64,000 nucleotides of DNA, from assembly GCA_016784125.1 (NCBI GenBank), contig JADHVI010000003.1:7241-71240 (forward strand), written 5' to 3'. Shown here one piece after another: positions 13,650 through 62,449 of the stretch. A program made the position numbers and the translations under genes. The stretch comes from Candidatus Woesearchaeota archaeon. GTDB taxonomy: Archaea > Nanobdellota > Nanobdellia > Woesearchaeales > GCA-2686295. Positions within the stretch are counted from its first letter, which is position 1; the number at the start of each line of letters is the position of its first letter. The notes beneath the pieces were generated by a model. It saw only the letters and a program-made list of their open reading frames with translations, ran no database searches and was not told the DNA's origin.

Positions 13650-16540
<2,891 letters not shown>

Positions 16541-16797: not shown

Positions 16798-16869
16798 GTA
16801 TAAGTCCTATAGTAATGAGTATAAAAGGTAGGAATAAAAGAAACTATAAAATTATTAAATTAATAAAAA

Positions 16870-18334
<1,465 letters not shown>

Positions 18335-38164: not shown

Positions 38165-39517
38165 ATGAGTATATTTAAAACCTATGATATAAGGGGTATA
38201 TATCCTGATCAATTGGATGAAGAATTAATATATAAAATAGGAAAATCATTTGTTCAAATTCTAAAAGAAGAAACCTTAAAAGAAAAACTAACAATAGTTA
38301 TAGGAAGAGATATGAGGTTATCTTCACCTTCTTTATCAAAAAAGCTTATAGAAGGAATAATTGATACCGGATCTGATGTAATAGATATAGGATTAGTATC
38401 AACACCAACATTCTATTATTCAATTGGAAAATTCAAAGCTGATGGTGGATTACAAGTTTCAGCTTCACATAATCCTAAAGAATACAATGGTGTCAAAGCA
38501 GTAAGAGCTAACGCTTATCCAATGGGTTTAAGCAATGGTTTAGATAAGGTTAGAGATTTATGTACAAAAAATGAGTTCGAAAAAGTAGAACAGAAGGGAC
38601 AAGTAATTAATAAAGAAAATGTTGTTAATTCTATTGTTGATTATTCTTTAAAATATTATAATTTTAATATTAAACCATTAAAAGTTGTTGCGGATGTTGC
38701 AAATGCAATGAGCTCACCTGATCTAGATAATCTGTTTGAACAACTACCTTGCGAATTAATTAAAATGAATTTTGAATTAGATGGAACTTTTCCAGTTCAC
38801 CAAGCAGACCCTTTTCAAGAAAAAAATATTGTGGATATAAAAAGAAAAGTTATTGAAGAAGGGGCAGATTTAGGTATAGCAACTGATGGAGATGGTGATA
38901 GAATATTCTTTATTGATGACAAAGGAGAACTAGTTGAGCCAGGAATTATTAGAGGAATTATTGCTAAAGTTGTTTTGCAACACAATCCTGGATCAAAAAT
39001 TTGTTATGATATTAGGCCTGGAAGAATTACAAAAGATATGATTATTGAGAATGGTGGTATTCCTATTGTTACAAAAGTTGGTCATTCATTGATTAAAATA
39101 CAAGCAATAAAAGAAAAAGCCCCTTTCTCAGGTGAATCATCAGGGCACTTTTTTATGAAAACAAATAATGGATTTTTTGAATGCCCTTTGATTATTGCTT
39201 TGATAATAATGGACGAAATATCTAAAAATGGTAAACTGTCTGAAATCATAAAACCTTTACAGAGATATTCTCATTCAGGTGAAATTAATTCTATAGTTGA
39301 AGATAAAGAAGAAAAAATGAAAGAGCTTGAAAAAGTGTTTGGAGATGGGTCTAAAGTTTCATGGTTGGATGGAATATCAATAGAACATGATGATTACTGG
39401 TTCAATGTCAGAGCTTCAAATACTGAACCTCTTCTAAGATTAAATTTGGAAGCAACTTCCAAAGAGAAAATGGAAGAGATGACTAAGAAAGTTGTTGAAA
39501 TAATAAGAAAAATCTAA
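38165..39517 (+). CDS. phosphoglucomutase/phosphomannomutase
   Basis: Active-site Ser loop SASHNPKEYNG, metal-binding DGDGDR, sugar-binding GESSGH. Confidence 0.85.
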   Translation: MSIFKTYDIRGIYPDQLDEELIYKIGKSFVQILKEETLKEKLTIVIGRDMRLSSPSLSKKLIEGIIDTGSDVIDIGLVSTPTFYYSIGKFKADGGLQVSASHNPKEYNGVKAVRANAYPMGLSNGLDKVRDLCTKNEFEKVEQKGQVINKENVVNSIVDYSLKYYNFNIKPLKVVADVANAMSSPDLDNLFEQLPCELIKMNFELDGTFPVHQADPFQEKNIVDIKRKVIEEGADLGIATDGDGDRIFFIDDKGELVEPGIIRGIIAKVVLQHNPGSKICYDIRPGRITKDMIIENGGIPIVTKVGHSLIKIQAIKEKAPFSGESSGHFFMKTNNGFFECPLIIALIIMDEISKNGKLSEIIKPLQRYSHSGEINSIVEDKEEKMKELEKVFGDGSKVSWLDGISIEHDDYWFNVRASNTEPLLRLNLEATSKEKMEEMTKKVVEIIRKI

Positions 39518-39520
39518 TAA

Positions 39521-40984: not shown

Positions 40985-41969
40985 TAATAACTAACCCCTT
41001 TTTCACTATCTGAAAATCAATCACATCTGATTCTTTAGATAAAGCATTACTAACATCTTCCTTCTTATTTTTTTCAACAAAGAAAACAACGCAGCCACCG
41101 CCACCTGCACCACAAACTTTAGCAGAAATAGCACCATTCTTCTTAGCTAACGCAATTAAAGATTCAATCTTATCAGTGGAAACAGAGTCAGCCAACAGCT
41201 TTCGATTTTCCCACTCCTCACCCAATATTAAACCAATATCATCAAACCGTTTATCAAACAAAACGTCTTTCATTTTATGAGCAGTAGCAACAATACGTGC
41301 GAATTTTTCATGAACTCCATCTTTGCCTTCAATTTCGTTTTTAATCATTTCCCAATTGCTCATGCCAGAGTTTCTAGGCTTGCCAGTATAACAAAGAACT
41401 AACCTATCTTCAAGCTCCTTAATATCAACATCAATTGTCTCATGAGAAATCTTATTCATTCCAAGATAAACAATGTTTACACCGCCATATAATGCGGGTA
41501 CATAATCTTGGTAACCAGTCAACATTTTCAAAAACTTTCCTTCAATGTTCTTAGCAATCTCGTGCAACTCATCCATGGAAAAACCTTTTTTTGTAAGTCT
41601 ATTCAAAGCACCACAAACAGCTATATTCAAAGCAGACGAACTAGACAAACCCGCACCCGGAGGAGCACTTCCTTTGACCTCTAATCTGAAACCCTGTTTA
41701 GGCTGGAAGAACTCAATAATCATCGAGAACAAAGATAAATAATGATTATGATGTAAATTATTGAATGAATCAAAAGAAACCTCTTCATCACTAATGTTGG
41801 ACGCGAGAATAATTTTGTTATCCTCTCTTGTAGAAAGCTTAGCCTTAGCCAAAAGATTAATTGCAAAGTTAACTGTGAGTGCATCTTTATGAAATAGATA
41901 CAAAGGCCAAATATCAACCGTTCCGCCAGCTAAATCAACTCTGGTAGGTGCTGAGCTTTCAATAATCAT
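40974..41969 (-). CDS. GHMP-family sugar kinase (HddA/fucokinase-like)
   Basis: N-terminus SAPTRVDLAGGTVDIWP and ATP-binding PPGAGLSSSSA. Confidence 0.7.
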   Translation of the reverse strand: MIIESSAPTRVDLAGGTVDIWPLYLFHKDALTVNFAINLLAKAKLSTREDNKIILASNISDEEVSFDSFNNLHHNHYLSLFSMIIEFFQPKQGFRLEVKGSAPPGAGLSSSSALNIAVCGALNRLTKKGFSMDELHEIAKNIEGKFLKMLTGYQDYVPALYGGVNIVYLGMNKISHETIDVDIKELEDRLVLCYTGKPRNSGMSNWEMIKNEIEGKDGVHEKFARIVATAHKMKDVLFDKRFDDIGLILGEEWENRKLLADSVSTDKIESLIALAKKNGAISAKVCGAGGGGCVVFFVEKNKKEDVSNALSKESDVIDFQIVKKGLVINEA

Positions 41970-48119: not shown

Positions 48120-48881
48120 ATGCCTAATTTTGATTCTATCAAAAACATAGTTGTAGATGAATACTCAACTGAACCTGCGCAAGAAAGATATAGAAAAAAC
48201 ACTCGTGCTGGATTATGGAAATCTGAAACAATTTTGTTTGAGAAATATTTGAAACCAGGATCTTCAGTTCTAGACATTGGTTGTGGTTCAGGAAGAACAA
48301 GTTTTGCGCTTGCAAAAATGGGTTATAAAGTAACTGCCATTGATTTAACACCTGCAATGATTGCATCTGCTAAGCAACTTGGCAAAGAATTTGATATGGA
48401 TTTAGATTTCAGATTAGGTGACGCAACAAACTTAGACTTTGAAAAAGAGAGCTTTGACAACGCAGTATTCTCATTTAATGGATGGGATAATATTCCTGGA
48501 AGGGAAAATAGGTTAAAATCGTTGCAAGAAGTCTACAGAGTTCTAAAACCAGGCGGAGTATATGTCTTAACATCTCATGTTAGAAAGATGGGAAAATATA
48601 CTCCTTTTTGGATAGCGCAGTGGATGAAAATGTATATCTTGAAACCATTTGGATACAAAGTAATGGAAAAAGAATGGGGCGACAGATTCTTCAAACAAGA
48701 ACAATCGGGTTTGAAAATGAAGAATAAACAGTTTGCATGCATACCAAGCTTAAAAGAAATAAAATATCAAATAGCAAAAGCTGGTTTTACACTAGAGTTT
48801 TATGATTATAGAAATAATATTTCAAAAGAGGAACTAACAGCAGGAAACTGTACGTTCTTTATTTGCAAGAAAAATGGGTGA
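48120..48881 (+). CDS. class I SAM-dependent methyltransferase
   Basis: VLDIGCGSGRTSFALAKMGYKVTAIDLTPAMIASAKQ. Confidence 0.7.
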   Translation: MPNFDSIKNIVVDEYSTEPAQERYRKNTRAGLWKSETILFEKYLKPGSSVLDIGCGSGRTSFALAKMGYKVTAIDLTPAMIASAKQLGKEFDMDLDFRLGDATNLDFEKESFDNAVFSFNGWDNIPGRENRLKSLQEVYRVLKPGGVYVLTSHVRKMGKYTPFWIAQWMKMYILKPFGYKVMEKEWGDRFFKQEQSGLKMKNKQFACIPSLKEIKYQIAKAGFTLEFYDYRNNISKEELTAGNCTFFICKKNG

Positions 48882-49845
48882 CTGGGAATCAATATTCAAA
48901 GAGAGGAAAGATATTTTTAGAGAGCCTCAGGAAGATATGAATAAAATCATTGCTCTTTTGAAAAAAGAAAAAGCTAAAAGAGTTCTTGATCTAGGATGCG
49001 GTACAGGAAGACATACAGTTCTATTATCAAAAAACGGATTTGAAGTTTATGCGGCTGATATTTCAGAATCTGGAATAAAGAACGCAAAAAAGTGGTTGAA
49101 AGAAGAAGGTTTGAATGCCAAGTTCAAGATTCAAGATTTTTATAAAAAATTTAACTTTAAAGATGGTTTTTTTGATGCTGTGATATCAACGCAGTCTATT
49201 CATCACAATTATCAAGATAAAGTTCAGTTCTGCATTTCCGAAATCGAAAGAGTTCTCAAACCAGGCGGAATTGCTTTTGTAACTGTTTCAGCCAGCAAAT
49301 ACAAACGCAGAGCTTCTAAATATAAAATTGTAGGTCCCAGAGTTTATGTTCCAATGGATGGGGCTGAAAAAGGACTGCCTCATTTTATTTATACTAAGTC
49401 TTTGTTGAGAAAAGATTTTAAGAATTTTAAAATTATAAGTTTGCATATGGACAAAGGAAAACATTACTGTGTTTTAGGAAGGAAAGGCAATACAACTAAA
49501 TTCCAAGAAAATATCTATGCGAAGCTGAGGAAAGTGCCGAAAGGCAAAGTAACGACTTATGGAGAACTAGCCAAAGCAGTAAAGAGTAAAGCTTATCGCG
49601 CAGTTGGTAGTGCAATGAACAAGAACCCATATGTGTCTGAAAAGCATAGCTTTTCTGAACATGCCAAAAATAAAGAATTTTTGAGCACGCCTCAAGTACC
49701 ATGCCACAGAGTTGTTTGTAGCGATGGAAGTATTGGTGGTTTTGCATCTGGAGTCAAAAAGAAGATTGCAATCTTAGAAAAGGAAGGAGTTCTAGTAAAG
49801 AAGAATAAAATAGTTGATTTTGAAAAGAAACTCTACAAGTTCTAA
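48874..49845 (+). CDS. fusion protein: SAM-dependent methyltransferase + O6-alkylguanine-DNA alkyltransferase (MGMT/Ogt) C-terminal domain
   Basis: N-terminus VLDLGCGTGRHTVLLSKNGFEVYAADIS; C-terminus YAKLRKVPKGKVTTYGELA...NKNPY...VPCHRVV (PCHR active-site Cys) with a ~17-aa insertion before PCHR. Confidence 0.6.
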   Translation: MGDWESIFKERKDIFREPQEDMNKIIALLKKEKAKRVLDLGCGTGRHTVLLSKNGFEVYAADISESGIKNAKKWLKEEGLNAKFKIQDFYKKFNFKDGFFDAVISTQSIHHNYQDKVQFCISEIERVLKPGGIAFVTVSASKYKRRASKYKIVGPRVYVPMDGAEKGLPHFIYTKSLLRKDFKNFKIISLHMDKGKHYCVLGRKGNTTKFQENIYAKLRKVPKGKVTTYGELAKAVKSKAYRAVGSAMNKNPYVSEKHSFSEHAKNKEFLSTPQVPCHRVVCSDGSIGGFASGVKKKIAILEKEGVLVKKNKIVDFEKKLYKF

Positions 49846-50922: not shown

Positions 50923-52665
50923 ATGGGGGTTTGTAGTAAAAAGGAATTGAAGATATTCATCACTTTTTTCTTAATATATGTTATATTCGCGCAGAGTATT
51001 GCTTGGAATGAAAATACTAGGCTAGATCTGACTTTAGCTATTGTAGATGAAGGAACATTTGCAATAGATTCCTACTTTGAAAACACAGGTGACAGAGTTA
51101 CTTTCAATGATCATTATTACACAGATAAAGCTCCAGGAATGTCTTTTTTAGGAATACCATCATATTTTGTCTATAAACAATTTTTTGGACCGCCAACTGT
51201 TGGAGAAGAACTATATGCTCCTTTATCAAAGAGTTTTGCTTCAGCTTTATTTATAGTAATAATATTTACTTCTGCTCTCTTAGGAGCATTGAGTGTAGTT
51301 TTAGTATACAGAGTATCAAATTTTTTCACGAAAAGAAAACTCCACAAAAACTTAATTGTGCTAATATATGGCCTTGGAACACTCATTTTTGTTTACTCAA
51401 GAATCTTCATGTCACATACAGCTGCAGCGTTTTTCTCATTTTTATGTTTCTATTTAATATTAAAAGCAAACCAAGAGAAGAGCAAGAAAAAATATTATTT
51501 TTTATTGGCAGGACTCAGTGGAGGTTTTGGTCTGATAACCGATTACACCGTTCTAATTGTTCTAATCATTTCTTTTTTAATGATATTTCTTGGAACCTCA
51601 AAATACAAGCTTGTTTTCACTTCTAAACTAAAACATTCTGGATTGTTCATTTTAGGATTCATATTAATTTTCTCACTCTTAATCTTTTATAATCAACAAG
51701 TCTTCAACAAGAGCATTGCTTACCCATATTCATATGTAGATTCGTCTGTGTGGACTGATTCGAGCTATGAACTATATGGTGTTACGTGTGAAGGGCTCTC
51801 ACCAGATGACACTTATCGTTGTAAAGCTATAGGAACACAAGATGTAAAACTGTGTGAAGAAATATCAGATTTTAATACTAGAGACAGTTGTTTTTTATCT
51901 CTTGCATTTTCACTAAAAGAGATTGATGTTTGCAACAATATTCTAAATAAAGATAACTCGTATTTTTGCAAATCTAGAGTGAACTACGACAAATCATTCT
52001 GTAACGAAATAGTGGATCAATCTATTAAGAAAGAATGCGTGGGAGAACTGTCAATAATAAAAAAAGTGTCTAATATTTTCTTCCTAAACAAAGAAGATGT
52101 ACCTCTAAAAATGTTTAGATTGTCATTCTTTCCTTATAGAGGATTATTTTTCTATTTTCCAATTTTAATATTTTCAATCATAGGTTTGTTCTTTATGTTC
52201 AAAAAGTACAAGTTTGAATCTTTGGCAATAGCAGGGCTGTTTTTAGTTTTATTGTGGTTTAGTGCATCACTAACTGTTTGGTGGGGTGGTTATGCTTTTG
52301 GTCCACGTCACATGACTCCTCTGATGCCTTTCTTAATGATTCCATTATTATTTTCTCTTAAAAAAATTAAGCTTCGTTACATAATGCCTTTTATAGTAAT
52401 ATCAATATTCTTCTGCGTTTTAAGTTTACAAATTCCAGAAGAAGCAGGTTTAGGTAAAACTGTTGATAATCTTACACCGTTTGGAAATCCTTTATTTGAT
52501 CATTATCTTCCTTCATTCTTGGAATCGGGACCAAGAACTATTTTATTAGAGAAATTATCTGATGTGTTTATGTCTAACATGGGATTTAAAATAGCTATAA
52601 TTTTATCATTATTGGTTTGGCATAAAGAATTGTATCGCTTAATTAGAAAAAAATCTTTTAAGTAG
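50923..52665 (+). CDS. GT-C-fold membrane glycosyltransferase (PMT/ArnT-like) with an inserted Cys-rich extracytoplasmic loop
   Basis: ~12 TM segments; first-loop acidic motif AIVDEG...YYTDKAPGMSFLGIP typical of the GT39/GT83 families; ~120-aa loop with 12 Cys (CEGLSPDDTYRCKA...CEEISDFNTRDSCF...CNNIL...YFCKS...FCNEIV...ECVG). Confidence 0.5.
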   Translation: MGVCSKKELKIFITFFLIYVIFAQSIAWNENTRLDLTLAIVDEGTFAIDSYFENTGDRVTFNDHYYTDKAPGMSFLGIPSYFVYKQFFGPPTVGEELYAPLSKSFASALFIVIIFTSALLGALSVVLVYRVSNFFTKRKLHKNLIVLIYGLGTLIFVYSRIFMSHTAAAFFSFLCFYLILKANQEKSKKKYYFLLAGLSGGFGLITDYTVLIVLIISFLMIFLGTSKYKLVFTSKLKHSGLFILGFILIFSLLIFYNQQVFNKSIAYPYSYVDSSVWTDSSYELYGVTCEGLSPDDTYRCKAIGTQDVKLCEEISDFNTRDSCFLSLAFSLKEIDVCNNILNKDNSYFCKSRVNYDKSFCNEIVDQSIKKECVGELSIIKKVSNIFFLNKEDVPLKMFRLSFFPYRGLFFYFPILIFSIIGLFFMFKKYKFESLAIAGLFLVLLWFSASLTVWWGGYAFGPRHMTPLMPFLMIPLLFSLKKIKLRYIMPFIVISIFFCVLSLQIPEEAGLGKTVDNLTPFGNPLFDHYLPSFLESGPRTILLEKLSDVFMSNMGFKIAIILSLLVWHKELYRLIRKKSFK

Positions 52666-53646
52666 CAAACATTTTCTATTTGATAGTAAGATTTCATTCA
52701 AAGCTTGTCTAAGTCCAAACTTATGTCTTCTTATCTTGAGAATGTTTTTTTCAACAAGAACTTTTTTGACAAGCAAATCAAGTTTATTGCTATCTGCATA
52801 CAATTGATTCATAACTTTATTTGGTATCTGTAGATCCAGAAGGGGTCTAATTTTTTTAAAAGCAAAATAAGTACTGCTTGAAACACCCCAATTTTTAGAT
52901 GTTTTTATCAAAAAATCCCAATTAATTTGGTTTTTCTTTAGTAAAAGTGAGATGTCAACTAAGTATTTCAAAGGACTTCGAAATAGGTCGTGGTGTGCTA
53001 AGAAAGTTGATATAAGAATAACTTCATGCTCTGGACATAAATAGTTTTTTTTTGAATGTTGAAATAACTCTTCAATAGAAATGTTGTAAGGATCTGTTTT
53101 TTCAAATACTTGCCAATGAAGATCAATGTGGCAGTCAACCATCCCAACTTTTTTGACAAAAGGTAGCTGTGTGCTAAACTCTTCTAAATATTTCTTAGAA
53201 TGGATTTGCTCAAATAACCCAAATCCATTTGCTTTAAGAATCTCTACTGCTCGTTTTTTATCTTCTTCTAAAATCAAAATATCAATATCCATAAATTCTC
53301 TAAGTCCAATTTTATAATAACCTTGAGAAACCATTGATGCTCCTTTGAAAACGAGGAATCTAATTTTATTTTTTTGAAATATCTTAGAAACTCTATCAAG
53401 TTCTTTTTTTAACAACAGACTATACATCAAAACGTTTTTGTAATTATTTTTTAGCTCTAACTTTTTATTCTTAGGAATTGAGCTTGAATGTTTCAATTTC
53501 TCATAAACTATTCCGCCAATTAAATTATAACTATGGATACTTTCTAATTTGTCCCAGTCAATACATGGTAACTTGTTCTCTTTAATGTTTTTATTATTGA
53601 TGAATTGCTTTGTGATTTCCAGTATGGTCTGTTCTTCTTTGTTCAT
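52639..53646 (-). CDS. putative nucleotidyltransferase (Pol-beta-like, PF14907-like)
   Basis: GAS...DIDILIL pattern (FKGASMVSQGYYKIGLREFMDIDILIL); start set to the first ATG (ORF-track start is a TTG). Confidence 0.45.
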   Translation of the reverse strand: MNKEEQTILEITKQFINNKNIKENKLPCIDWDKLESIHSYNLIGGIVYEKLKHSSSIPKNKKLELKNNYKNVLMYSLLLKKELDRVSKIFQKNKIRFLVFKGASMVSQGYYKIGLREFMDIDILILEEDKKRAVEILKANGFGLFEQIHSKKYLEEFSTQLPFVKKVGMVDCHIDLHWQVFEKTDPYNISIEELFQHSKKNYLCPEHEVILISTFLAHHDLFRSPLKYLVDISLLLKKNQINWDFLIKTSKNWGVSSSTYFAFKKIRPLLDLQIPNKVMNQLYADSNKLDLLVKKVLVEKNILKIRRHKFGLRQALNEILLSNRKCLLLKRFFSN

Positions 53647-53708
53647 TGATCTTTTCAATATGAATAACTATTTAAGTTAATCGAAATTTGTTACAATTGA
53701 TCTGCATC

Positions 53709-54653
53709 ATGAATTATTTTGATAATTTAAGAACTTTGTATAACAATCCAATTGAGATTAAAGGCTTTAAACAACTCAACAAGAAAGGCTTGTTTCCTGA
53801 AGAAGAAATATTGATAAAGAAGCATCTTAAGCCAGGAAAAAAAGTTTTAGTTATTGGCTGTGGTGCCGGAAGAGAATGTTTTGTTCTCGCAGAAATGGGA
53901 TTTGAAGTTGTAGGTGTTGACATATCTAAAGAAATGGTTGCAGCTGCAAAAAAACTTTCTGAGAAGAAAAAACTAAATATCAAATTCTTCGAATCAAATA
54001 TATTGGACTTTGATTACAAGAAAGAATCATTTGATTACGTTTTAATGCTTGAACAAATGTATAATCTTATTCCTTTCAAAAAAAACAGGTTGCTGTTATT
54101 AAAGAAAGTTCGCTTCTTACTTAAGAAGAACGGCTTATTCATTTTCTCAGCATATTCAAAGTTATATTTTCATTTAATTTTTCCTTATTTGTTTGTGAAA
54201 TTTCCGCAAAATTTAATTAGAAATTTATTCTCCAGTAAAGACAAACTTATGCACCTTCAACAGTCTAAATATTCATTTTCAAATCCGAAACCTTTGTCGA
54301 GAATAAAACTCTTAAAACGTTTTTTTGGAAAAGTTTATTATGCCTTAAAATTATTTCTAAGAGAACCTATTTTTTTATTTAAGAATATATACAGATTAAT
54401 TCAAAAAATTATCTTTAAAAAAAGAGCTGTATTGGAACCTGGTGATTTAATTGGAAATCCGAGTCTTTTTTGTAAAAACGAATCTTTGAAAGTAGTTTTT
54501 AAGTATTTCAGTCCAAAACAAATTACAGAGAAAATAGTCGAATCTGATTTTAAATTAGTTAGATATTATTCTAGAGATGAACTCCTAGAAAACAAAAGGT
54601 TTATGGGGAAAATATTTACTGATATAAATTATTATGTTGCAGAGAAATTTTAA
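53709..54653 (+). CDS. class I SAM-dependent methyltransferase
   Basis: VLVIGCGAGRECFVLAEMGFEVVGVDISKEMVAAAKK; first ATG used. Confidence 0.65.
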   Translation: MNYFDNLRTLYNNPIEIKGFKQLNKKGLFPEEEILIKKHLKPGKKVLVIGCGAGRECFVLAEMGFEVVGVDISKEMVAAAKKLSEKKKLNIKFFESNILDFDYKKESFDYVLMLEQMYNLIPFKKNRLLLLKKVRFLLKKNGLFIFSAYSKLYFHLIFPYLFVKFPQNLIRNLFSSKDKLMHLQQSKYSFSNPKPLSRIKLLKRFFGKVYYALKLFLREPIFLFKNIYRLIQKIIFKKRAVLEPGDLIGNPSLFCKNESLKVVFKYFSPKQITEKIVESDFKLVRYYSRDELLENKRFMGKIFTDINYYVAEKF

Positions 54654-54739
54654 CAAGTTTTACAACAGTTGAGCTCGCCAACATTCTTAATAAGTTTAAG
54701 AGTCGGTTTTTCGTATTCAAGAGTTTTCTTCTTCATCAT
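54650..54739 (-). CDS. candidate RiPP precursor peptide (29 aa: MMKKKTLEYEKPTLKLIKNVGELNCCKTC)
   Basis: Unannotated small ORF in the gap between the MTase and the B12-rSAM genes, on the same strand as the PqqD, kinase and NTase genes; Lys-rich leader-like N-terminus and Cys-rich C-terminus; weak RBS (AAGAAA); could be a chance ORF. Confidence 0.35.
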   Translation of the reverse strand: MMKKKTLEYEKPTLKLIKNVGELNCCKTC

Positions 54740-54811
54740 ATTTTTTCTTAATTTTTTTTATTTAAAAACTTTTTGGATATATTTATATATTTCTTCTCGC
54801 AATCCAATCTT

Positions 54812-56242
54812 ATGACTGATGTTCTTCTTTTTATTCCAAGATATAAGTGGAATGATTCTAAAAAAGCAGACTCTTGTTATCCTCCTATTGGAGTTGCTAT
54901 ACTTGCTTCTAATCTTGAAAAAAATAGTTATTCTGTTTCTATTCGTGACGCAAACGTAGAACCAATATCTGAGAAGGAGTTTATTGGTTTAATTAAGAAA
55001 GAAAAGCCTTCCTTATTTGGTTTGTCTATTTCAGATGCGAATATTCCGGATGTGAAAAGATGGTGTTTACTAGTTAAAAAAATAAGTGCACACACAAAAA
55101 TAGTGATTGGCTGTCGCGATAAATTATTTCTAAAAAATAATTTTTTGTCTTTTGCAGATTATTTTGTAATTGGTGAAGCAGAAGAAACAATTGTTGAATT
55201 GTCAGATTGTATTATTAAGCGTACCTGCTCTTTAAAATCAATTAATGGATTGGCTTATTTTGAAAAGAATGTACTAGTGATGAATAGTCTTAGAAAAAAA
55301 GTCTCTAATCTAAATAAGCTGCCATTTCCAGCATACCATCTTCTTTCGATGAATCTTTACAAGCCATATGCAATTAATCATCTTGGTAAAAGGTTTACTG
55401 CTATTATTAGCAGTCGTGGATGTGCTTTCAAATGTTCTTTTTGCAGTATCGCAGTTGCTAATAGCCATACTTGGAGACCCTTAAGCGCGGCAAATACTAT
55501 TGCGTTAGTAGAATATTTGCATGCAAAACATGGTATTACTCACATACATTTTCAGGATGATGAATTTCTTATAGATTCTAAGAGAGCTGCTAAGATTTGT
55601 ACTCTAATGAGATCGAAATTTGATAAAGAAATTGTTTGGGAGTGCAGGGGCAGGGCTGCAAATATGTCTGAAACATTAGCTTCTCTTCTTGCATCTGCGA
55701 ATTGTATAGCAATTACTTTTGGAATCGAACTTGGATATCAAGAAGGCTTAGATAAAATAAAAAAACAAACCACTATAAAACAAATTGAAAAGGCTGTTGA
55801 AGTTTCCAGAGAGAATCATTTACAAACAAAAGCGGGTTTTATGTTAGGATTTCCTTGGGAAACAAAGGAAGATGTCCAGAAAACAATTGATTTTGCAAAA
55901 AAGTTGCCCCTTGATTTTGCAGGTTTTACGATTTTAATTCCTTTTGAAGGAACTGAAATGTATGCTTTGCTAAAAAAAGAACGTTTAATTGTTTCATCTG
56001 GAGATACTTTCTCAAAGAAGAATGGTTTCGAGTTTTCTGTAAACACCAAATTTTTATCTTATAGAGAACTGGTAAAATTAAAACTGAGAGCACAAAAACA
56101 GTTCTATTTGCGACCAACTTATTTTCTAAGCTTATTTTTTAGATCTCATAATTTACTAATGTTGAAAAGGTGTTTGAAAACTTATTTTTACTCAATAAAA
56201 GCTATTATCTGGACCTCTTCTAAACTTTTCAGAACTCAATAA
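54812..56242 (+). CDS. B12-binding-domain radical SAM protein (class B)
   Basis: N-terminal cobalamin-binding-like domain, SSRGCAFKCSFCSI (CxxxCxxC); TATA-like ATTTATATATTTC ~20 nt upstream of the first ATG. Confidence 0.7.
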   Translation: MTDVLLFIPRYKWNDSKKADSCYPPIGVAILASNLEKNSYSVSIRDANVEPISEKEFIGLIKKEKPSLFGLSISDANIPDVKRWCLLVKKISAHTKIVIGCRDKLFLKNNFLSFADYFVIGEAEETIVELSDCIIKRTCSLKSINGLAYFEKNVLVMNSLRKKVSNLNKLPFPAYHLLSMNLYKPYAINHLGKRFTAIISSRGCAFKCSFCSIAVANSHTWRPLSAANTIALVEYLHAKHGITHIHFQDDEFLIDSKRAAKICTLMRSKFDKEIVWECRGRAANMSETLASLLASANCIAITFGIELGYQEGLDKIKKQTTIKQIEKAVEVSRENHLQTKAGFMLGFPWETKEDVQKTIDFAKKLPLDFAGFTILIPFEGTEMYALLKKERLIVSSGDTFSKKNGFEFSVNTKFLSYRELVKLKLRAQKQFYLRPTYFLSLFFRSHNLLMLKRCLKTYFYSIKAIIWTSSKLFRTQ

Positions 56243-56498
56243 GTTTATTTTTTTCTAGTTTGTTTAACATTTCAATTACATCTTTCTCTAAAGCCTTTTT
56301 CCCAACTGAGAATTTCTTACTCATGGAAACAATGATTTCTTCAATATTTCTCTTTCCGTTTATAAGATTCCATACAATGCTCCCACTACTATTAAGGTTA
56401 TAGAACTTTCCTGTTTCAAGCAAGAGTATGATAGTTTCATCATCAATTTTCTCAGATTCAATATCTTTTCGCTTTTTAGGAATACTTTTCAAGTTCAT
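56229..56498 (-). CDS. PqqD-family protein (RiPP recognition element-like)
   Basis: ETGKFYNLNSSGSIVWNLINGKRNIEEIIVSMSKKFSV...ALEKDVIEMLNKLEKNKLI fits the PqqD/RRE pattern (x-Y-x-LN-x-G-x-iW-x-l-G-x-R-x-eeI ... D-v-efl-x-L-x-LI); 89 aa. Confidence 0.65.
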   Translation of the reverse strand: MNLKSIPKKRKDIESEKIDDETIILLLETGKFYNLNSSGSIVWNLINGKRNIEEIIVSMSKKFSVGKKALEKDVIEMLNKLEKNKLIEF

Positions 56499-58098
56499 CT
56501 ATTTCCCTCCAAAAATGCTTGTCTTTTTTAAAGTATAAATAATTGCACTTTACTTCTTTTGAAATATTTTTTATCAGTTCAAATACTTTTTCATACTCAT
56601 CCTTTTTCCTGGTTATGAATTTGAAAAACATTTCTTCCTTGGTTAGTTCCATAATTACATTTGCTCTACTAATTTCGCTTAGAGTGTGAGAATCTGATTG
56701 TTTAATGAAAAATATTCTGTGAAGTTTCACAGTTTTACTATTTGGTTTTAATGTCTCTTTGAATTTAAAATATTCTCCTCCCAGAGGATTGCCATACAAG
56801 AAAAACTGTTTATTCTTTTTCTGGATAATTGTTGTTTCATCATTTAGAACTGCTGATTTATCTGACAAACTAGCAATAGTGGATTTTCCAGCTCCCTTCT
56901 CACCGCAGAAGACATATCCTTTGTTATTTCTAACAATTGAGCTGGCATGTAGGAATATTGTCTGTTTGTCATATAATATGCTGGCAAAAGTCATTTTCAA
57001 GGCTTTTCCGCAAGCATATTTACTATTAGGCATTTTAATCCATGCATACGCCTGTTCTTTGTTTTTCTCAATCTGTAATAATAATGTTTTGTCTTCATAT
57101 ATTGTTTCTAAAGATGAATCTACTTTGTTTTGTATACTTAGAAACAACTTAATTGACTCAGGTTTTTTAGTTTCAAAGTGCTTGTAATCATTTTCAATTC
57201 TTTTCAAAAACAATTTGCTCTCAGACATTACTTTTACTGTTAGATCAGCAATATTTATCTTTAAGTCATAAGTGGGTTTAATACCTATTAGTTCTAGTGA
57301 TTCTTTTTTGTTCTTGAATGAAATAATCGTGTTTGACAAATCAAACAAATCTTTCATCATTTTATCAATAGCCTTGGTTGTTGAACTATACTCTTTGTAA
57401 ATTTGAAGTATTTTCTTCAAGCAGTTTTCTGATTCTCTAGTTATAGTATTATTCTTACTGGCAATATACTTTGCCTTTAGAAAATAGTTTCTTGCTAAAT
57501 AGAATTTATTCTCTTCTCTCGCAGGATTTTGTTTCATGTCTTTGATTATGAGCGGATAATTCCTTTTTCTTTTCTTTTCTGTTTGTTCTAAATTGTTATA
57601 ACCAAAATGCCTAATACAGACTTTTTTAAGCATACGGCTTTTAGGAATATTTTTTTGCGATTCAACTATTTTTTCATGAACAATTCCACTCCAAAAATAT
57701 TTTTTTGAATTCCTAAAGAGAACTATTCTTTTGTGAACTGAAGATTTTTGATTTTCTTTTTCAGAGATAATTTTTACTTTGAAACAATCGTTTTTTTCAT
57801 TTAATTGGCTCTTTAATTCTGTACTGTGTTCTAAAATCTCATCTGCATCAATTGAAATAATCCATTCTTTGGTACACTTACTTAATGCATAGTTTCTTGC
57901 TTCTGAAAAATCGTTTTTGAATTTATGCGAGAAAACTTTGTTAGTATATTTTTTCCCAATCGCAATGGTACTATCTTTTGACCCTGTATCAACAATTACA
58001 ATCTCATCAACAACATTTTTTATGCTTTCTAAACATCTGGAAAGATTCTTTTCTTCATCTTTTACAATTAGACACGCAGAAATTGTTTTTTTTGTCAT
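56476..58098 (-). CDS. family-2 glycosyltransferase fused to an HprK-related P-loop kinase domain
   Basis: N-terminal GT2 (CLIVKDEEKNLSRCLESI...IVIVDTGSKDST...ISIDADE); C-terminal FLHASSIVRNNKGYVFCGEKGAGKSTIASL matches the HprK-type kinase P-loop (LHAS...G-x-x-G-x-GKST); overlaps the PqqD gene by 23 nt. Confidence 0.6.
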   Translation of the reverse strand: MTKKTISACLIVKDEEKNLSRCLESIKNVVDEIVIVDTGSKDSTIAIGKKYTNKVFSHKFKNDFSEARNYALSKCTKEWIISIDADEILEHSTELKSQLNEKNDCFKVKIISEKENQKSSVHKRIVLFRNSKKYFWSGIVHEKIVESQKNIPKSRMLKKVCIRHFGYNNLEQTEKKRKRNYPLIIKDMKQNPAREENKFYLARNYFLKAKYIASKNNTITRESENCLKKILQIYKEYSSTTKAIDKMMKDLFDLSNTIISFKNKKESLELIGIKPTYDLKINIADLTVKVMSESKLFLKRIENDYKHFETKKPESIKLFLSIQNKVDSSLETIYEDKTLLLQIEKNKEQAYAWIKMPNSKYACGKALKMTFASILYDKQTIFLHASSIVRNNKGYVFCGEKGAGKSTIASLSDKSAVLNDETTIIQKKNKQFFLYGNPLGGEYFKFKETLKPNSKTVKLHRIFFIKQSDSHTLSEISRANVIMELTKEEMFFKFITRKKDEYEKVFELIKNISKEVKCNYLYFKKDKHFWREIDELEKYS

Positions 58099-58143
58099 TT
58101 TAATGCAAAGAATTAAAAAAGTAATTGATTAATAAATTTTGTT

Positions 58144-58560
58144 ATGAGACAATTAACTATAAACAGCAACAGTATGCTTCCATTACTGAAAATCAACGAT
58201 CGAGTAGTTGTGAATAACACTAATTCATTTGTAATTGGGGATATACTAGTTTATAAGAAAAACAAATCTTTTGTAGGCCATAGACTAGTTAAAAAAAGTG
58301 AATTAGGTTTTTTTGTTAAAGGAGATAATGATCCTACTGTTGAACTTGTTAGTTCCAATAAAATCCTTGGGAAAATAATTCTAATTAATAATTATAAATT
58401 TAAGAATAATTTCATTGAAAAAATAATTTCTCATTGTTCTTATGTTCAGTCAAAAATCCCTTTCATATTTAACATTAAGAATGATTTGTTAAGAAAAGCC
58501 TTTAAATTTCTAACTAATCCTTTATTATACTTAGCTCACTCTTCAAAGCATTGTTTATAA
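58144..58560 (+). CDS. S24/S26-family (signal-peptidase/LexA-like) peptidase
   Basis: SMLPLLKINDRVVV (Ser nucleophile box), GDILVYKK, VKGDN motifs as in S26 signal peptidases; 138 aa. Confidence 0.45.
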   Translation: MRQLTINSNSMLPLLKINDRVVVNNTNSFVIGDILVYKKNKSFVGHRLVKKSELGFFVKGDNDPTVELVSSNKILGKIILINNYKFKNNFIEKIISHCSYVQSKIPFIFNIKNDLLRKAFKFLTNPLLYLAHSSKHCL

Positions 58561-59327
58561 TAATCACATTGCCCAGTGCTCCACTTACAAAGTGGACTTG
58601 TTTGTTGCGGATAATCAACTTTTTCTTTAGAAACAGTCTTTGTATGAATCTTATCAACTTCAGTTCTAGCTTCATCTACAAGCGCGTCATCAACAGGCAA
58701 TAAAAATTCATTATGTTTCAAAAAATCAATTCCAACTAAGTCAGGCTTAACACCATGAGCTTCTTCATACATCATAGCGTAGATGCCAAGTTGTAACCTG
58801 TATTCAGGGGTCATGTGAGCTCTCTTGCTGGTCTTATAATCAAGAATGACAACTTTTGTGTTGTTCTCAAATAAAACATCTATAAATCCACGAACATTAT
58901 GTTTTTTAGAAACAAACTCTTTTTCTCTTGTAGGAGTCAAATGCTCGAATGCTTGAGTAAATGTCTTGCTATCATCCAATTGGTTTCGAAATTTTTTCTG
59001 AAATCGTTTGAACCAGTTCTGAAGCATTTCCTTGCTTTCATTATAGTAAAACTTAAGTTTTGAGTCTCCAAGCTTTAACTCTGATAATTCTTCATAGTTA
59101 TCATTCCAGATTTTTTCAAACAACCAAAACAAGTGAAGTCTTAAGGCATCTTCGCTACTAATCTTAGCGTCAATGTCAAAGAAGTCTTCTAAAACAGTGT
59201 GGACAATTTTTCCCCTAATTAAATGAATACTTGGAAAACTAGGAAGCGCTTCAATATACCTATAATAATACTTCCGTGGGCACTGTTTGTAAGTGTTGAT
59301 GCTGCTCGGACTCTCTACTCTACTCAT
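58536..59327 (-). CDS. Cas4/RecB-like PD-(D/E)XK nuclease with a 4-Cys cluster (stand-alone)
   Basis: N-terminal Cys (YKQCPRKYYY), ILDYKTSK (motif III D..K), C-terminal C-x7-C-x5-C (CKWSTGQCDYYKQC) = Cas4/DUF83 pattern; no cas genes nearby. Confidence 0.55.
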   Translation of the reverse strand: MSRVESPSSINTYKQCPRKYYYRYIEALPSFPSIHLIRGKIVHTVLEDFFDIDAKISSEDALRLHLFWLFEKIWNDNYEELSELKLGDSKLKFYYNESKEMLQNWFKRFQKKFRNQLDDSKTFTQAFEHLTPTREKEFVSKKHNVRGFIDVLFENNTKVVILDYKTSKRAHMTPEYRLQLGIYAMMYEEAHGVKPDLVGIDFLKHNEFLLPVDDALVDEARTEVDKIHTKTVSKEKVDYPQQTSPLCKWSTGQCDYYKQCFEE

Positions 59328-62300
59328 TTTTTATCTATAGAAACTACTATTTTCTTATCTCTAACTGTTTTATCTGCTAAATACTTTAACTTCTTAGCAT
59401 CCAAACCAATAGTTATCTCTGTTGCTCCAATTTTTTTCTTTATCTCATCTTTGAATGGGCTTAGATTAACATCTGTGTTAATACAAGCTTTTATGGATTC
59501 TTCTTTTTTGAATCCAGAATCTTTTCTTAATTGCTGAATTCTTCTAATTGTATCCCTTGCGAAACCTTCAACTTCTAGTTCGTTGGTTACAAGTGTTGAT
59601 AGCATCACTTGCCCACCTTTAAAACTAGAAACCTCTGTGTTTTTAGGTGGAATCTGTGTGATATCAAAATGTTCTTTCTTTAATTCGAACTTGCCAACTT
59701 TAACAGAATCTTTAGTTTGCAAAGTTTTAGCAATATCGGATTTACTCTTAGCAATAGTTTCAGCAATTGTGCCTGTATCAGTGCCAAACTCTTTACCAAT
59801 ATTCCTAAAGTTTGGTTTAATCTCAAAATCACATTTGATCTTGCCAATAGAAATTTTCTTCACATTAACCTGCTTCATCAATAAAGCTTCTAGAGGTTTA
59901 ATGTTCTCGACAATTTTCTTATCAGCATCAATCATGACTTCTCCCAAAGGCCACCTTACACCCATCTTGGACTTGTCTCTGCAAGCAAGAGTTGCTGCAA
60001 TTACTTCTTGAGTTACGCTCATAGCTTTTTCCAAACTCAAATCGGATTTTCCAGGTTCAGGAATTATTTCCAAATGTACAGATTCTTTTAACTTGTTCAA
60101 ACACTTCAAGTTCTGATAAATTTTTTCGCTGATATAAGGTGTAATTGAAGCCATTAAAGATATTATTTTTAGCACACAATGATTGATGACATTCAAAGGA
60201 TTCTTATCATTATCTAATCGATTTCTAATGAGCTGAACATAAGTTCTACTAAGATCATCAACTACGAAGTTCTGAATTGTTCTCCCGACCAAATGTAAGT
60301 TAAAAGATTCGAATTGTTCTCTTGCTTCTCTAATGGTAGTGTTTAACCTTGAAAGTATCCATTTATCTTCTACTTCTTTAGATTCAACTGATGAAACCTT
60401 TGCATTCTGAGAAAGCAAGTAGATATGCAGATTCCAAAGTGTGTTCAATATCCTGGAAACTTCGGTTTTGATTGTTTCAAGACTAAATTTTTGTGTGCTA
60501 GAAGGATCAATGTCCCAACAATAATACAATCTGAGAGCATCAGCACCATGATTCTTAAGAGCATCTTTTGCAGTTACCACATTACCAACTGACTTACTCA
60601 TCTTTTCGCCTTTAGAATCCAAAACCCATCCAGGCATGGAAACAGTTTCATAAGGTGATTTGTCAAACACACCAATACCAACAAACATCAATGAGTAGAA
60701 CCATCCTCTAATCTGATCTTGAGATTCATTGATTCTACTAACAGGATAATTATTTTCAAATAGTTCTTTATTCTCAAAAGGATAATGTAAAGATGCAAAA
60801 GTTGAACATCCTGAGTCAAACCAAACATCGAATATATCATTGATTCGAGTCATATCTTTCTTGCAAGCACCACATTTCAACATAACATTGTTAACTGTGT
60901 GCAAATCAAAGTCTTTAGGAATTTTGCCAGAAGCTTCTTTCTCTAATTCTTTTAATGATCCAACAGATTTAATTTCGCCACATTCACACTTCCAAATAGG
61001 AATTGGGATTCCCCAGTATCTTTGTCTTGAAAAATTCCAGTCTTCAGCGTTGCTAACCCAAGCTTCGAATCTTTCTTTTGCAAATTCAGGTTGCCATTCG
61101 ACCTTCTTGTTAGCAGAAAGCATCTTGTTTCTTATGTCCTCAATTTTTAAGAACCATTGTTTGCTCAATCTGAAAATCAATGGTGATTTACAACGCCAGC
61201 AAACAGGATAACTATGTTCAATCTTTGAAAAGTTAAGAAGGGATCCTGCTTTATGCATATCCTCCATAATTGCATGATCAGCTTGCTTTACGAATTCGCC
61301 CTGATATTTGCCAGCATCATCAGTAAAACAACAAGCATCATCCAAAGGACTTATATTTGGTAAATTATAATGTTTACCAATCTCGTGATCAGTTTTACCA
61401 TGACCAGGAGCTGAATGAACTAATCCACTACCATCTTCAACTGTGACGAAATCTTCGAATACATCTCCTGTCTTGATTCCTTTCTTAGCAGCAACTTTCG
61501 AAGCAACTCTCTCTTTTAAAATAGGAATTGACATGTAGACTTTCAACGCATTAGGATTCTTAGATAGTTCTTTTTGAACTGGAACATCTAATATGCTTTC
61601 ATATTGTAAACCATCCAATTTGGTTCCTTTGAAAGTCTCTAAAACCTTATATTCAATATCAATTTCTTTAAGCAAAGTTAATCTGTTCTTGGCTAGAATT
61701 AAATTTCCTTTACCAGTTTCAACCTTGACATATTCTTTGTCAGGATGAGCACAAATAGCAACGTTTGCAGGCAAAGTCCAAGGAGTTGTTGTGAATACTA
61801 ACAAGAAATCATTCTTTGTTCCTTTAACCTTGAATTTAACATATACTGAAGGATCAGTCATCTGTTTATAGGAGTCAGTTACTTCATAACCTGCAAGAGC
61901 AGTTTGACATTTAGGACACCAGAAAACAGGTTTTTTACCTTCATAGACCATTCCTTTATCCCAGAATTTTTTGAAAGCCCACCAAGCAGACTCAATATAA
62001 GAATTATTGTAAGTTAAATAAGGACTCTTCCAAGAGTACCAAGAACCAAGTTTGTCATAGACATCCAACCAAAGATCTTTGTTGAGAGTTGCGCTTTCTC
62101 TACAAGTCTTCATGAACTTAGCGATGCCATACTTTTCTATGTCTTTCTTTGATTTTAATTTGAGTTTCTTCTCAACCATGTTTTCGATTGGAAGACCATG
62201 AGTATCAAAACCAGGTTGGAACAAAACTTTCTTACCTTTCATAAAGTTCCATCTAACATAAGCATCTTTGTAAACAGTATTTCTGATATGGCCTACATGA

Positions 62301-62449
62301 GGGATGTAGTTTGCGTAGGGTGGACCATCCAATAAGAAGTAGCTCTCTCCCTTAGCGTTTTGTTTCTCCAAAAGTTTTAGAAGATCAATTTTCTTCCAAA
62401 AAGCTCCTATCTCTTTTTCGACTTTGCTGAAGTCATAACTTTCGTTCAT
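59324..62449 (-). CDS. ileS: isoleucyl-tRNA synthetase
   Basis: HIGH (PPYANYIPHVGH), GFDTHGLPIE, KMSKS (KMSKSVGNV); 1041 aa is typical of archaeal IleRS. Confidence 0.88.
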   Translation of the reverse strand: MNESYDFSKVEKEIGAFWKKIDLLKLLEKQNAKGESYFLLDGPPYANYIPHVGHIRNTVYKDAYVRWNFMKGKKVLFQPGFDTHGLPIENMVEKKLKLKSKKDIEKYGIAKFMKTCRESATLNKDLWLDVYDKLGSWYSWKSPYLTYNNSYIESAWWAFKKFWDKGMVYEGKKPVFWCPKCQTALAGYEVTDSYKQMTDPSVYVKFKVKGTKNDFLLVFTTTPWTLPANVAICAHPDKEYVKVETGKGNLILAKNRLTLLKEIDIEYKVLETFKGTKLDGLQYESILDVPVQKELSKNPNALKVYMSIPILKERVASKVAAKKGIKTGDVFEDFVTVEDGSGLVHSAPGHGKTDHEIGKHYNLPNISPLDDACCFTDDAGKYQGEFVKQADHAIMEDMHKAGSLLNFSKIEHSYPVCWRCKSPLIFRLSKQWFLKIEDIRNKMLSANKKVEWQPEFAKERFEAWVSNAEDWNFSRQRYWGIPIPIWKCECGEIKSVGSLKELEKEASGKIPKDFDLHTVNNVMLKCGACKKDMTRINDIFDVWFDSGCSTFASLHYPFENKELFENNYPVSRINESQDQIRGWFYSLMFVGIGVFDKSPYETVSMPGWVLDSKGEKMSKSVGNVVTAKDALKNHGADALRLYYCWDIDPSSTQKFSLETIKTEVSRILNTLWNLHIYLLSQNAKVSSVESKEVEDKWILSRLNTTIREAREQFESFNLHLVGRTIQNFVVDDLSRTYVQLIRNRLDNDKNPLNVINHCVLKIISLMASITPYISEKIYQNLKCLNKLKESVHLEIIPEPGKSDLSLEKAMSVTQEVIAATLACRDKSKMGVRWPLGEVMIDADKKIVENIKPLEALLMKQVNVKKISIGKIKCDFEIKPNFRNIGKEFGTDTGTIAETIAKSKSDIAKTLQTKDSVKVGKFELKKEHFDITQIPPKNTEVSSFKGGQVMLSTLVTNELEVEGFARDTIRRIQQLRKDSGFKKEESIKACINTDVNLSPFKDEIKKKIGATEITIGLDAKKLKYLADKTVRDKKIVVSIDKK

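Follow-up and report, generated by a model that had tools for sequence, protein, structure and literature searches.

A probable archaeal variant of the linear polyphosphorylated peptide type of RiPP cluster, centred on a 29-residue precursor, in a Candidatus Woesearchaeota genome bin

A stretch of 64,000 nucleotides from a Candidatus Woesearchaeota archaeon (assembly GCA_016784125.1, contig JADHVI010000003.1, positions 7,241 to 71,240 of the forward strand; hereafter the window, meaning the whole stretch at its full length) holds, between positions 52,639 and 59,327, a PqqD-type protein, a kinase fused to a glycosyltransferase, a nucleotidyltransferase-fold enzyme, a radical S-adenosylmethionine (SAM) enzyme, a methyltransferase and a signal-peptidase-like protein, all grouped around an open reading frame (ORF) of only 29 amino acids (aa). 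Does this island make a modified peptide, and if so, to which kind of system does it belong? A preliminary interpretation made from the letters alone, the sequence-only reading, took it for an undescribed archaeal peptide-modification system. The answer reached here is that the island is most likely an archaeal variant of the clusters for linear polyphosphorylated peptides (LPP), which are peptides made on the ribosome and modified after translation (RiPPs), and that its product is a modified form of the 29-aa peptide. Support for this assignment comes from homology, from co-conservation and gene fusions, from the selection acting on the peptide and from catalytic motifs that are intact. The kind of system is thus no longer undescribed, since the LPP family already defines a set without a cyclase and the window proteins are homologous to its members LppK, LppS, LppB and LppN; what has not yet been described, as far as we found, is the occurrence in archaea, the fusion to a SunS-like glycosyltransferase of family 2 (GT2) and so minimal a precursor. 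The ORFs named by the sequence-only reading all lie where it had placed them. Domains were called by scanning the ORFs of the window with Pfam and NCBIfam hidden Markov models (HMMs), and the features on which the argument turns are these:

54650-54739, minus strand: ORF of the putative 29-aa precursor peptide, MMKKKTLEYEKPTLKLIKNVGELNCCKTC (ORF call; absent from the NCBI annotation)
54760-54768, minus strand: TATA-like box TTTTTAAAT (upstream of the ATG of the peptide gene by 21-29 nt)
56229-56498, minus strand: PqqD-type RiPP recognition element (RRE) protein (Pfam PqqD E 1.4e-15, 57.8 bits, cut-off 23.4)
56476-58098, minus strand: GT2::kinase fusion, 540 aa (N-terminal GT2, 66 bits; C-terminal part ScmC/HprK-like)
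57604-58098, minus strand: GT-A domain of the fusion, residues 1-165, of SunS/ThuS/GmaR type with a DAD motif
57289-57603, minus strand: helical linker of the fusion, about residues 166-270 (helices in the model; SunS alignment to about residue 246)
56476-57270, stop codon included, minus strand: P-loop kinase domain of the fusion, residues 277-540, LppK-like (ScmC/HprK-like)
58144-58560, plus strand: S24/S26 peptidase, LppS-like (Peptidase_S24 23.4 bits, cut-off 23.3)
52639-53646, minus strand: PF14907 NTP_transf_5 nucleotidyltransferase-fold enzyme (NTase) (Pfam E 4e-37, 128.5 bits, cut-off 31.2)

The PqqD and NTP_transf_5 assignments of the earlier interpretation thus passed their HMM thresholds.

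LPP clusters have been described from the Bacillota, with genes LppA/K/B/S/N/D (Popov et al., Nat Commun 2026, PMC13381572). Their core set comprises a discrete RRE (LppB), an HprK-like kinase (LppK), an NTP_transf_5 enzyme (LppN) and an MsbA-like exporter (LppD), to which is added LppS, a leader peptidase resembling signal peptidases of the archaeal type; there is no cyclase, and the clusters are embedded in capsule loci (PMC13381572). The precursors, of 35-200 aa, carry the motif YxxPxVLxHQxIxFET/xxS, in which Y-16 and P-13 (YxxP) are required for RRE binding; LppK attaches several phosphates to Ser3 of the core, a change of this Ser to Thr abolished phosphorylation, and LppS cuts the leader after T-1 (the stroke in the motif) only when LppB is present, the clusters releasing a 45-residue peptide (PMC13381572). 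LppN was inactive in a heterologous host, where the authors postulated a missing partner, and the final LPP product and its function are still unknown according to the same paper (PMC13381572).

Comparison with the LPP proteins, whose sequences were machine-read from the PDF supplement of PMC13381572 and may contain small errors, places each part of this machinery in the window. The kinase domain aligns with LppK at 24% identity over 191 aa (pairwise E 1e-19) and the alignment reaches the C-terminal YxLxFxKxxxFW motif; the match to the lasso kinase PbaK is confined to the P-loop region (61 aa, E 8e-8). The S26 protein is 28% identical to LppS over 123 aa (E 3e-10) with the catalytic Ser and His aligned. 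Its motifs SM.P, HR and KGDN, kept across eight loci, place these domains in the Ser/His (archaeal/eukaryal) type, and the position of the catalytic Ser at residue 10 means that the window protein has no N-terminal membrane anchor, so a soluble, LppS-like leader peptidase is predicted. Likewise, the PqqD protein is 25% identical to LppB over 80 aa (pairwise E 5e-9). It also matches the NCBIfam model lasso_PqqD_Bac (1e-16) and, in a search of the Protein Data Bank (PDB), TbiB1 (4.7e-11), PbaB1 (7.5e-7) and LppB (7.6e-4); it is predicted, by analogy with LppB and the B1 proteins, to be a discrete RRE that binds the leader through a YxKPxL motif. The NTase is 22% identical to LppN over 187 aa (E 2e-5) and retains KG...R...DxD...H, which is invariant in 7 homologues; a word-indexed homology search with it returned only itself and its orthologue. 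Since its two-sequence structural model reached a predicted local distance difference test (pLDDT) score of only 45 and was not used for a fold search, the mechanism of PF14907 enzymes is taken from the literature: by inference from PsmN of pseudomycoidin (PMC8498205), this LppN/PsmN-like enzyme is predicted to add a sugar or a nucleotide to the phosphorylated peptide.

Are these genes together by more than chance? Twelve loci, each taken around a relative of the kinase domain, were compared, namely the window, ten loci from metagenomes or metagenome-assembled genomes (L001-L004, L007, L011 and L014-L017) and L021 on a Butyrivibrio fibrisolvens plasmid; a profile search with a 6-sequence kinase alignment returned two genome loci and four metagenome loci. 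Named hosts include two Woesearchaeota bins, one Altiarchaeota bin and one unclassified archaeon. The occurrence of the components was as follows, in a sample that is small and was partly picked by similarity searches, so that the counts are no census:

PqqD adjacent to the kinase homologue: 12 of 12 loci
S24/S26 domain: 10 of 12
Y-x-K-P peptide: 10 of 12
NTP_transf_5: 9 of 12
GT2, fused or adjacent: 9 of 12
B12-binding radical SAM: 5 of 12
PMT_2/GT-C: 4 of 12
class-I methyltransferase: 3 of 12

The sequence-only reading had treated the four minus-strand genes (kinase fusion, PqqD, peptide and NTase) as one set, with a methyltransferase and a radical SAM gene interleaved, and the neighbourhood comparison bears this out for the four genes and the methyltransferase. 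In the orthologous locus L001 the set is conserved at 59-72% identity (NTase 59%, fusion 61%, methyltransferase 64%, PqqD 72%), with the S26 protein at 41%. Moreover, the enzymes are repeatedly joined to one another, as GT2::kinase in the window, L001 and L003, as S26::NTP_transf_5 in L002, L003 and L017, and as S26::methyltransferase in L004; judged by these fusions the enzymes belong to one system, of which the S26 peptidase is a core component. A minimal version occurs in L011, where kinase, PqqD, GT2, a class-V aminotransferase, peptide and S26 lie amid housekeeping genes. The aminotransferase, which is cysteine-desulfurase-like (L011 1857-2921, plus strand), stands between the GT2 and peptide genes, and the system there is flanked by SRP54 and thymidylate kinase. 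In another archaeon (L017; GCA_043823195.1, JBDRAZ010000052.1, 1-16739), the core of kinase, PqqD and S24::NTase sits amid at least seven radical SAM or SPASM genes with a 50-aa peptide (ending in IKKKYIKPVCVQEKIEAGVAAWCGAAGSGTKASGTPACYDTQNS), an arrangement that suggests a thioether-type variant of the platform. The bacterial locus L021 (plasmid pNP243, NZ_CP146964.1, about 177.6-196 kb) is an LPP-like cluster in the Clostridia with a ScmC-like protein, PqqD, S24/S26 (sigpep_I_arch 2e-5), two NTP_transf_5 genes, a GT2, ABC ATPases and a 57-aa peptide containing YVKPEL and MKKAYVKPELKAS, its tail rich in Cys, Pro and Tyr. The genus Butyrivibrio is not named in the supplementary files of the LPP paper (PMC13381572), and this plasmid cluster implies that the family is broader within bacteria than the published set.

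The fusion protein is rare. The claim that the kinase is joined to a glycosyltransferase held up: an identical 540-aa protein is present on 18 contigs, and a 540-aa orthologue is 61% identical, which together exclude an assembly artefact. Full-length matches among 5.8 billion clusters were limited to the protein itself and that one orthologue. A word-indexed search with the kinase domain alone gave a single match; an exhaustive search found 4,202 homologues, mainly stand-alone proteins of 250-300 aa, with one independent GT2::ScmC fusion (P0126) among them. The description of the domain as HprK-like was right in one respect and not in another. The C-terminal half of the fusion matches ScmC (1e-9) and the HprK-related kinase A and B models, all beneath the curated cut-offs (ScmC 38 against 125 bits, HprK_rel_A 26.5 against 200). 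The precomputed Pfam family PF27840 (ScmC) is assigned to the protein, and the Walker A motif GEKGAGKST with the preceding His and the following Asp, which characterise the P-loop fold of HPr kinase/phosphorylase and PEPCK, are all present. Given that the His, the G-x-x-G-x-GK-[ST] loop and the Asp are invariant across an alignment of 23 homologues, "HprK-like" holds for the fold and the active site, even with every curated threshold missed.

Over its first 250 residues the fusion matches the SunS-family S-glycosyltransferase model (2e-20); among PDB sequences the GT2 domain matches GmaR (3.9e-33), SunS (1e-16) and ThuS (7e-14), and its nearest structures are the S-glycosyltransferases SunS and ThuS. 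In the predicted structure of the fusion (pLDDT 90.8), helices at 170-270 form a linker that corresponds to the helices that come first behind the GT-A domain of SunS. A side observation concerns L004, where SunS-like GT2 fragments broken by stops (4255-4520, plus strand; MKNSITACLIVKGD and WKDHFGDARNYSISKATKE) lie downstream of PqqD, as a decaying gene or through sequencing errors.

This likeness to SunS raises the first alternative, that S- or O-glycosylation of a Cys/Thr-rich tail is the essential chemistry, as in glycocins, and that the P-loop domain is no peptide kinase but a docking module in place of tetratricopeptide repeats (TPR). It would account for a GT2 that is structurally closest to SunS/ThuS and by sequence closest to GmaR, for the fact that the remaining close GT2 homologues are all GT2-TPR proteins with the repeats where the window protein has its ScmC domain, and for the three Cys in the tails of the window and L001 peptides. 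A mere docking module, however, sits poorly with a P-loop, His and Asp invariant in 23 homologues, with an end-to-end alignment to the proven kinase LppK, and with kinase homologues that mostly stand alone without any GT2; nor do the tails in other loci carry Cys, and a precursor with the helix-loop-helix, nested-disulfide form, a SunT-type peptidase-ABC exporter and thiol-disulfide oxidoreductases were not found in the window. We therefore regard the glycocin-like alternative as unlikely.

If an LPP-like system is the better description, the 29-aa ORF should be its precursor, and the question becomes whether so small a frame is a gene at all. Its exact sequence was missing from the protein collection searched, Pfam and NCBIfam scans of the window and L001 peptides gave no match at E up to 10, and a profile built from eight peptides hit PDB chains only in chance matches to RepB. 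The L001 orthologue, MKKEKEKYEKPTMKLIKNIGILNCCGTC, lies at the same position and likewise converges on the methyltransferase gene with an overlap of 4 nt; when the two peptide genes are compared from Tyr to the stop, 9 codons are identical, 9 differ synonymously and 4 non-synonymously. The TTTTTAAAT box stands 21-29 nt 5' of the ATG in both loci while the neighbouring intergenic bases diverge; this suggests a promoter of the peptide's own and a leaderless transcript, the box by itself being weak evidence because the genome is AT-rich. On the conservation of protein sequence, position and promoter box, the ORF is a real gene under purifying selection. Further, a small ORF with a Lys-rich N-terminus followed by Y-x-K-P recurs among the kinase-anchored loci, 9 of the 10 such peptides having a hydrophobic residue at motif position 6 and the L017 peptide a Cys. 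Across 11 sources, L017 and L021 being left out, the strict pattern Y.[KR]P.[LIMVF] was matched by 11 of 2,722 small ORFs, 8 of which are these peptides. The window peptide itself has a Lys-rich N-terminus, Y9-x-K-P12-x-L14 and three Cys among its final five residues. It shares with the LPP logo YxxPxVLxHQxIxFET the positions Y1, P4, hydrophobic 6, K(Q)10 and hydrophobic 12; L7, H9, F14-E15-T16 and S19 are not matched, and a Thr falls at +20 from the Tyr. Because the Tyr of LppA sits at -16, the leader is predicted by analogy to comprise residues 1-24 and the core residues 25-29 (CCKTC), with the boundary between N24 and C25.

So short a core invites a second alternative, in which the peptide is a scaffold, as in mycofactocin or pyrroloquinoline quinone (PQQ) biosynthesis, whose C-terminal residues are modified and excised as a small glycosylated metabolite. 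Mycofactocin is made with an RRE (MftB), a radical SAM enzyme (MftC), a peptidase (MftE), a GT2 (MftF) and a methyltransferase (MftM), a set that the window parallels, and its GT2 weakly matches MftF models. Chemistry at the C-terminus would also suit the predicted tail of 4-5 residues and the steady spacing from Tyr to the C-terminus, which in five loci amounts to 21, 21, 21, 21 and 20 residues (L015, L014, L002, L017 and L021 have a longer one). The tails themselves vary from locus to locus (CCKTC, CCGTC, AATKN, IGFQI, VGLS and others), and with them the last residues (TC, KN, QI, LS, TL), whereas the Val-Tyr of MftA and the Glu/Tyr of PqqA are invariant. In addition, the window radical SAM is of the B12-binding and not the SPASM type and is missing from several loci, and the closest characterised relatives yield a 45-residue peptide and no small molecule. 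A scaffold in the mycofactocin or PQQ manner is, on balance, rather improbable.

A third possibility is that the peptide is no substrate at all and that the island is a locus for surface-glycan or S-layer glycosylation in which PqqD and the kinase act on something else. Glycan genes are indeed at hand, with GT-C and GT2 enzymes, flippases, Wzy/Wzt-type genes and a nucleotide-sugar module in or near several loci and the window, and LPP clusters too sit in capsule loci. Against this, PqqD-type RREs are peptide-binding adapters, the Y-x-K-P peptide occurs in 10 of 12 loci where the background is about 1 per 900 small ORFs, the peptide is under purifying selection, and L011 has only kinase, PqqD, GT2, class-V aminotransferase, peptide and S26 between housekeeping genes; we give this possibility very little credence. 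Hardly to be entertained is a lasso-peptide cluster with its cyclase and B2 protease elsewhere in the genome: the PqqD protein does match lasso RRE models and TbiB1 best and YxxPxL is the lasso leader motif, but neither an Asn-synthetase-like nor a transglutaminase-like gene lies in the window or the related loci, a 5-residue core is too short for a threaded lasso, and an S26 leader peptidase takes the place of B2.

The LPP-type assignment has its own difficulties, which are best weighed together. The kinase domain falls beneath every curated HMM cut-off, and the PqqD protein is nearer to lasso RREs than to LppB. In the S26 protein, D93, the third catalytic residue of LppS, is matched by a Glu one position off. 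Neither the FET cleavage motif of LPP precursors nor their Ser at core +3 is present in the peptide, and the L004 tail IGFQI has neither hydroxyl nor thiol; together with the loss of phosphorylation upon Ser-to-Thr change in LPP, that tail implies that the conserved chemistry may not be Ser/Thr phosphorylation. The window contains no MsbA-like exporter, every ORF of at least 480 aa being assigned and none being an ABC exporter. L001, the nearest orthologous locus, has only a degenerate copy of the radical SAM gene. Finally, the evidence consists of sequence and structure prediction, the cluster being known here from its genes alone, and the sample of loci is limited in the manner described above. 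Each of these points weighs against the assignment, which we nonetheless consider likely.

The genes interleaved with or adjoining the core are as follows:

53709-54653 (alternative start 53688), plus strand: class-I SAM methyltransferase (Methyltransf_31 2e-21)
54812-56242 (alternative start 54773), plus strand: B12-binding (class-B) radical SAM enzyme (B12-binding 1.9e-15, Radical_SAM 9e-21)
50923-52665, plus strand: GT-C membrane glycosyltransferase, PMT_2-like (PMT_2 29.8 bits; LA_3751/2 family 3.7e-16)
58536-59327, minus strand: PD-(D/E)XK/Cas4-like nuclease (domain scan)
59324-62449, minus strand: isoleucyl-tRNA synthetase (ORF adjoining the island)

The methyltransferase gene converges on the peptide gene with an overlap of 4 nt at its 3' end, its 64%-identical L001 orthologue is arranged in the same way, and it is predicted to be a tailoring enzyme. 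Elsewhere in the window (48120-49845, plus strand) there is a tandem pair of class-I methyltransferases, the second fused to an MGMT/Ogt-type DNA_binding_1 domain (9.9e-26), which is not kept beside the system in L001. The radical SAM gene is divergent from the peptide gene and its product carries the CxxxCxxC motif as GCAFKCSFC; no NCBIfam equivalog was reached. B12-radical SAM genes adjoin the system in three loci, L003, L014 and L015, and in L001 occur at a distance of 10 kb. On this distribution the enzyme is a recurrent but dispensable accessory, and C-methylation is one among its possible roles. At a place in L001 that would suit a tailoring radical SAM enzyme (12941-13927, minus strand) there is a 328-aa radical-SAM-like ORF with a B12-domain-like N-terminus. 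It was ruled out as an orthologue of the window enzyme, having no CxxxCxxC and only 25% identity over 81 aa, and is probably inactive. A further B12-binding radical SAM gene, of 515 aa, is found in the window at 30847-32394 (minus strand), 24 kb from the island.

Of the three neighbours that the sequence-only reading had allowed might belong, each met a different fate. The S26 peptidase proved to be core: in four other loci it forms one protein with either the NTase or the methyltransferase. The GT-C gene is probably an accessory of the cluster: it converges on the NTase gene with a 27-nt overlap, a weakly similar membrane protein is at its position in L001, and L001, L014 and L015 have PMT_2 genes at the flanks of the system, three copies in the last. 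The Cas4-like nuclease, whose gene shares 25 nt with the 3' end of the S26 gene, was dismissed as a member, since outside copies of the same genome it is never seen with the system. No cas genes were noticed among the annotated ORFs of the window, in which no CRISPR scan was made.

With regard to the host, the deposited island proteins are attributed to an "archaeon" or "Candidatus Woesearchaeota archaeon" bin, and a complete archaeal rRNA operon lies on the minus strand at 13644-18333 (23S 13644-16547, tRNA-Ala(TGC) 16723-16797, 16S 16872-18333; archaeal Rfam models), which explains a peak of GC content at 14-18 kb and confirms the archaeal host. Two other groups of genes in the window deserve mention. 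This DPANN archaeon has, in a row at 21710-28028 (minus strand), uvrB, uvrC and uvrA, genes for nucleotide excision repair of the bacterial type. At 38165-41969, 9 kb upstream of the island, a phosphoglucomutase/phosphomannomutase, a fusion of HAD and sugar-1-phosphate nucleotidyltransferase domains, and a GHMP kinase are grouped, plausibly as a module supplying nucleotide-activated sugars.

How might such a cluster work? The 29-aa peptide would be transcribed from its own promoter, and the stand-alone PqqD protein, whose gene overlaps that of the kinase by 23 nt, would bind Y9-E-K-P12-T-L14 as an added beta-strand and so offer the C-terminal tail to the enzymes. The LppK-like P-loop domain of the fusion could then phosphorylate a hydroxyl in CCKTC, most likely that of Thr28, and its SunS/GmaR-like GT-A domain could move a sugar onto Thr, Cys or the phosphate. 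The PF14907 enzyme might elaborate the phosphate, in the way that PsmN adds hexoses in pseudomycoidin, while the methyltransferase and the B12-radical SAM would attach further groups. The S26 peptidase, guided by the PqqD-leader complex, would cut about 16 residues past the Tyr and release a modified pentapeptide, with the GT-C enzyme perhaps attaching lipid-linked sugars to it outside the cell, after export. RRE binding, kinase activity and RRE-dependent leader cleavage we infer from the Bacillota LPP systems, and sugar addition to phosphate from pseudomycoidin (PMC8498205); the modified residues, the order of steps, the identity of the sugar, the roles of the radical SAM and GT-C enzymes and the biological function are speculative.

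The LPP paper describes LPPs as "restricted to the Bacillota", and the archaeal peptidases of its dataset are anchored housekeeping enzymes that lack an RRE (PMC13381572). That the LPP core machinery exists in Woesearchaeota and has relatives in Altiarchaeota and further archaeal bins implies that the family spans both prokaryotic domains. The GT2::kinase fusion suggests that glycosylation and phosphorylation fall on the same short tail, and the SunS/GmaR-like GT2 may be the partner activity that the LPP authors postulated. Similarly, the S26 fusions place the NTase and the methyltransferase in the complex of RRE, leader and peptidase. Both are hypotheses open to direct testing, and a precursor of 29 residues with about five in the core is an attractive substrate for reconstitution in vitro. 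To our knowledge, RiPP clusters are rare in genome-reduced DPANN archaea, and the presence of one amid housekeeping genes suggests a role at the cell surface or in interaction with a host. More tentatively, and with more doubt than confidence, the product may be a natural product of a kind not seen before, a Cys-rich CCKTC pentapeptide with a phosphate-linked sugar and methyl groups, the first RiPP assigned to DPANN archaea and the output of an ancient platform that crosses domains. Were this true, one would read the "archaeal-type" leader peptidase as a sign that the LPP systems of Bacillota arose in archaea, the GT2::kinase fusion would reveal the partner whose lack left LppN inactive and the final LPP structure unsolved, and the set of kinase, RRE, S26 and NTase would be an ancient platform shared across domains.

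Set against systems already known, the island touches several and coincides with none. With the SynChlorMet cassette and the HprK-related kinases A and B (TIGR04352/04355) it shares a member of the ScmC family PF27840 paired with a PqqD homologue. The cassette (TIGR04248-04251) joins ScmC and ScmD to two radical SAM/SPASM proteins, a pair that the window lacks; membership was ruled out by the ScmC score given above, by ScmD at 26.9 against 100 and by the want of any SPASM protein in the island, and membership of HprK-rel-A by its score against the equivalog cut-off. With glycocins it shares a SunS-like GT2, predicted to act on a peptide, and it differs from SunS/ThuS and from the flagellin O-GlcNAc transferase GmaR in having a kinase in the place of the TPR and a substrate predicted to be delivered by an RRE. 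The phosphorylated lasso peptides (paeninodin with PadeK, pseudomycoidin with PsmK/PsmN) offer the same trio of HprK-like kinase, PqqD RRE and PF14907 transferase, and also the precedent of Ser phosphorylation on a linear precursor followed by hexose addition to the phosphate; the likeness to this Firmicutes accessory set was correctly seen at the outset (PMC8498205). Equally, the early remark that no lasso cyclase is present agrees with a window in which every ORF of at least 480 aa is accounted for, none of them Asn-synthetase-like. Lasso membership was ruled out, neither a macrolactam cyclase C nor a B2 peptidase being found in the window or the related loci; the window kinase moreover matches PbaK around the P-loop only, and lasso kinases act on a C-terminal Ser where the window peptide ends in Cys. 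From the Bacillota LPP clusters the island differs in its archaeal host, in the fusion of its kinase to a SunS-like GT2, in a precursor of 29 aa with a predicted core of five residues as against 35-200 aa, in a peptide without FET/xxS, in the want of an MsbA-like exporter, and in its B12-radical SAM, methyltransferase and GT-C accessories, domains that are scarce in the 126 Bacillota clusters (0 Radical_SAM, 7 Methyltransf_25, 1 PMT_2; PMC13381572). Yet it is with these clusters that the resemblance is most complete: a PqqD RRE, an LppK-type kinase, a soluble Ser/His leader peptidase and a PF14907 transferase occur in both, the precursor of each has a Lys-rich N-terminal segment and a leader of the form YxxPx followed by a hydrophobic residue, both do without a lasso cyclase, and both keep genes for glycan biosynthesis close by.

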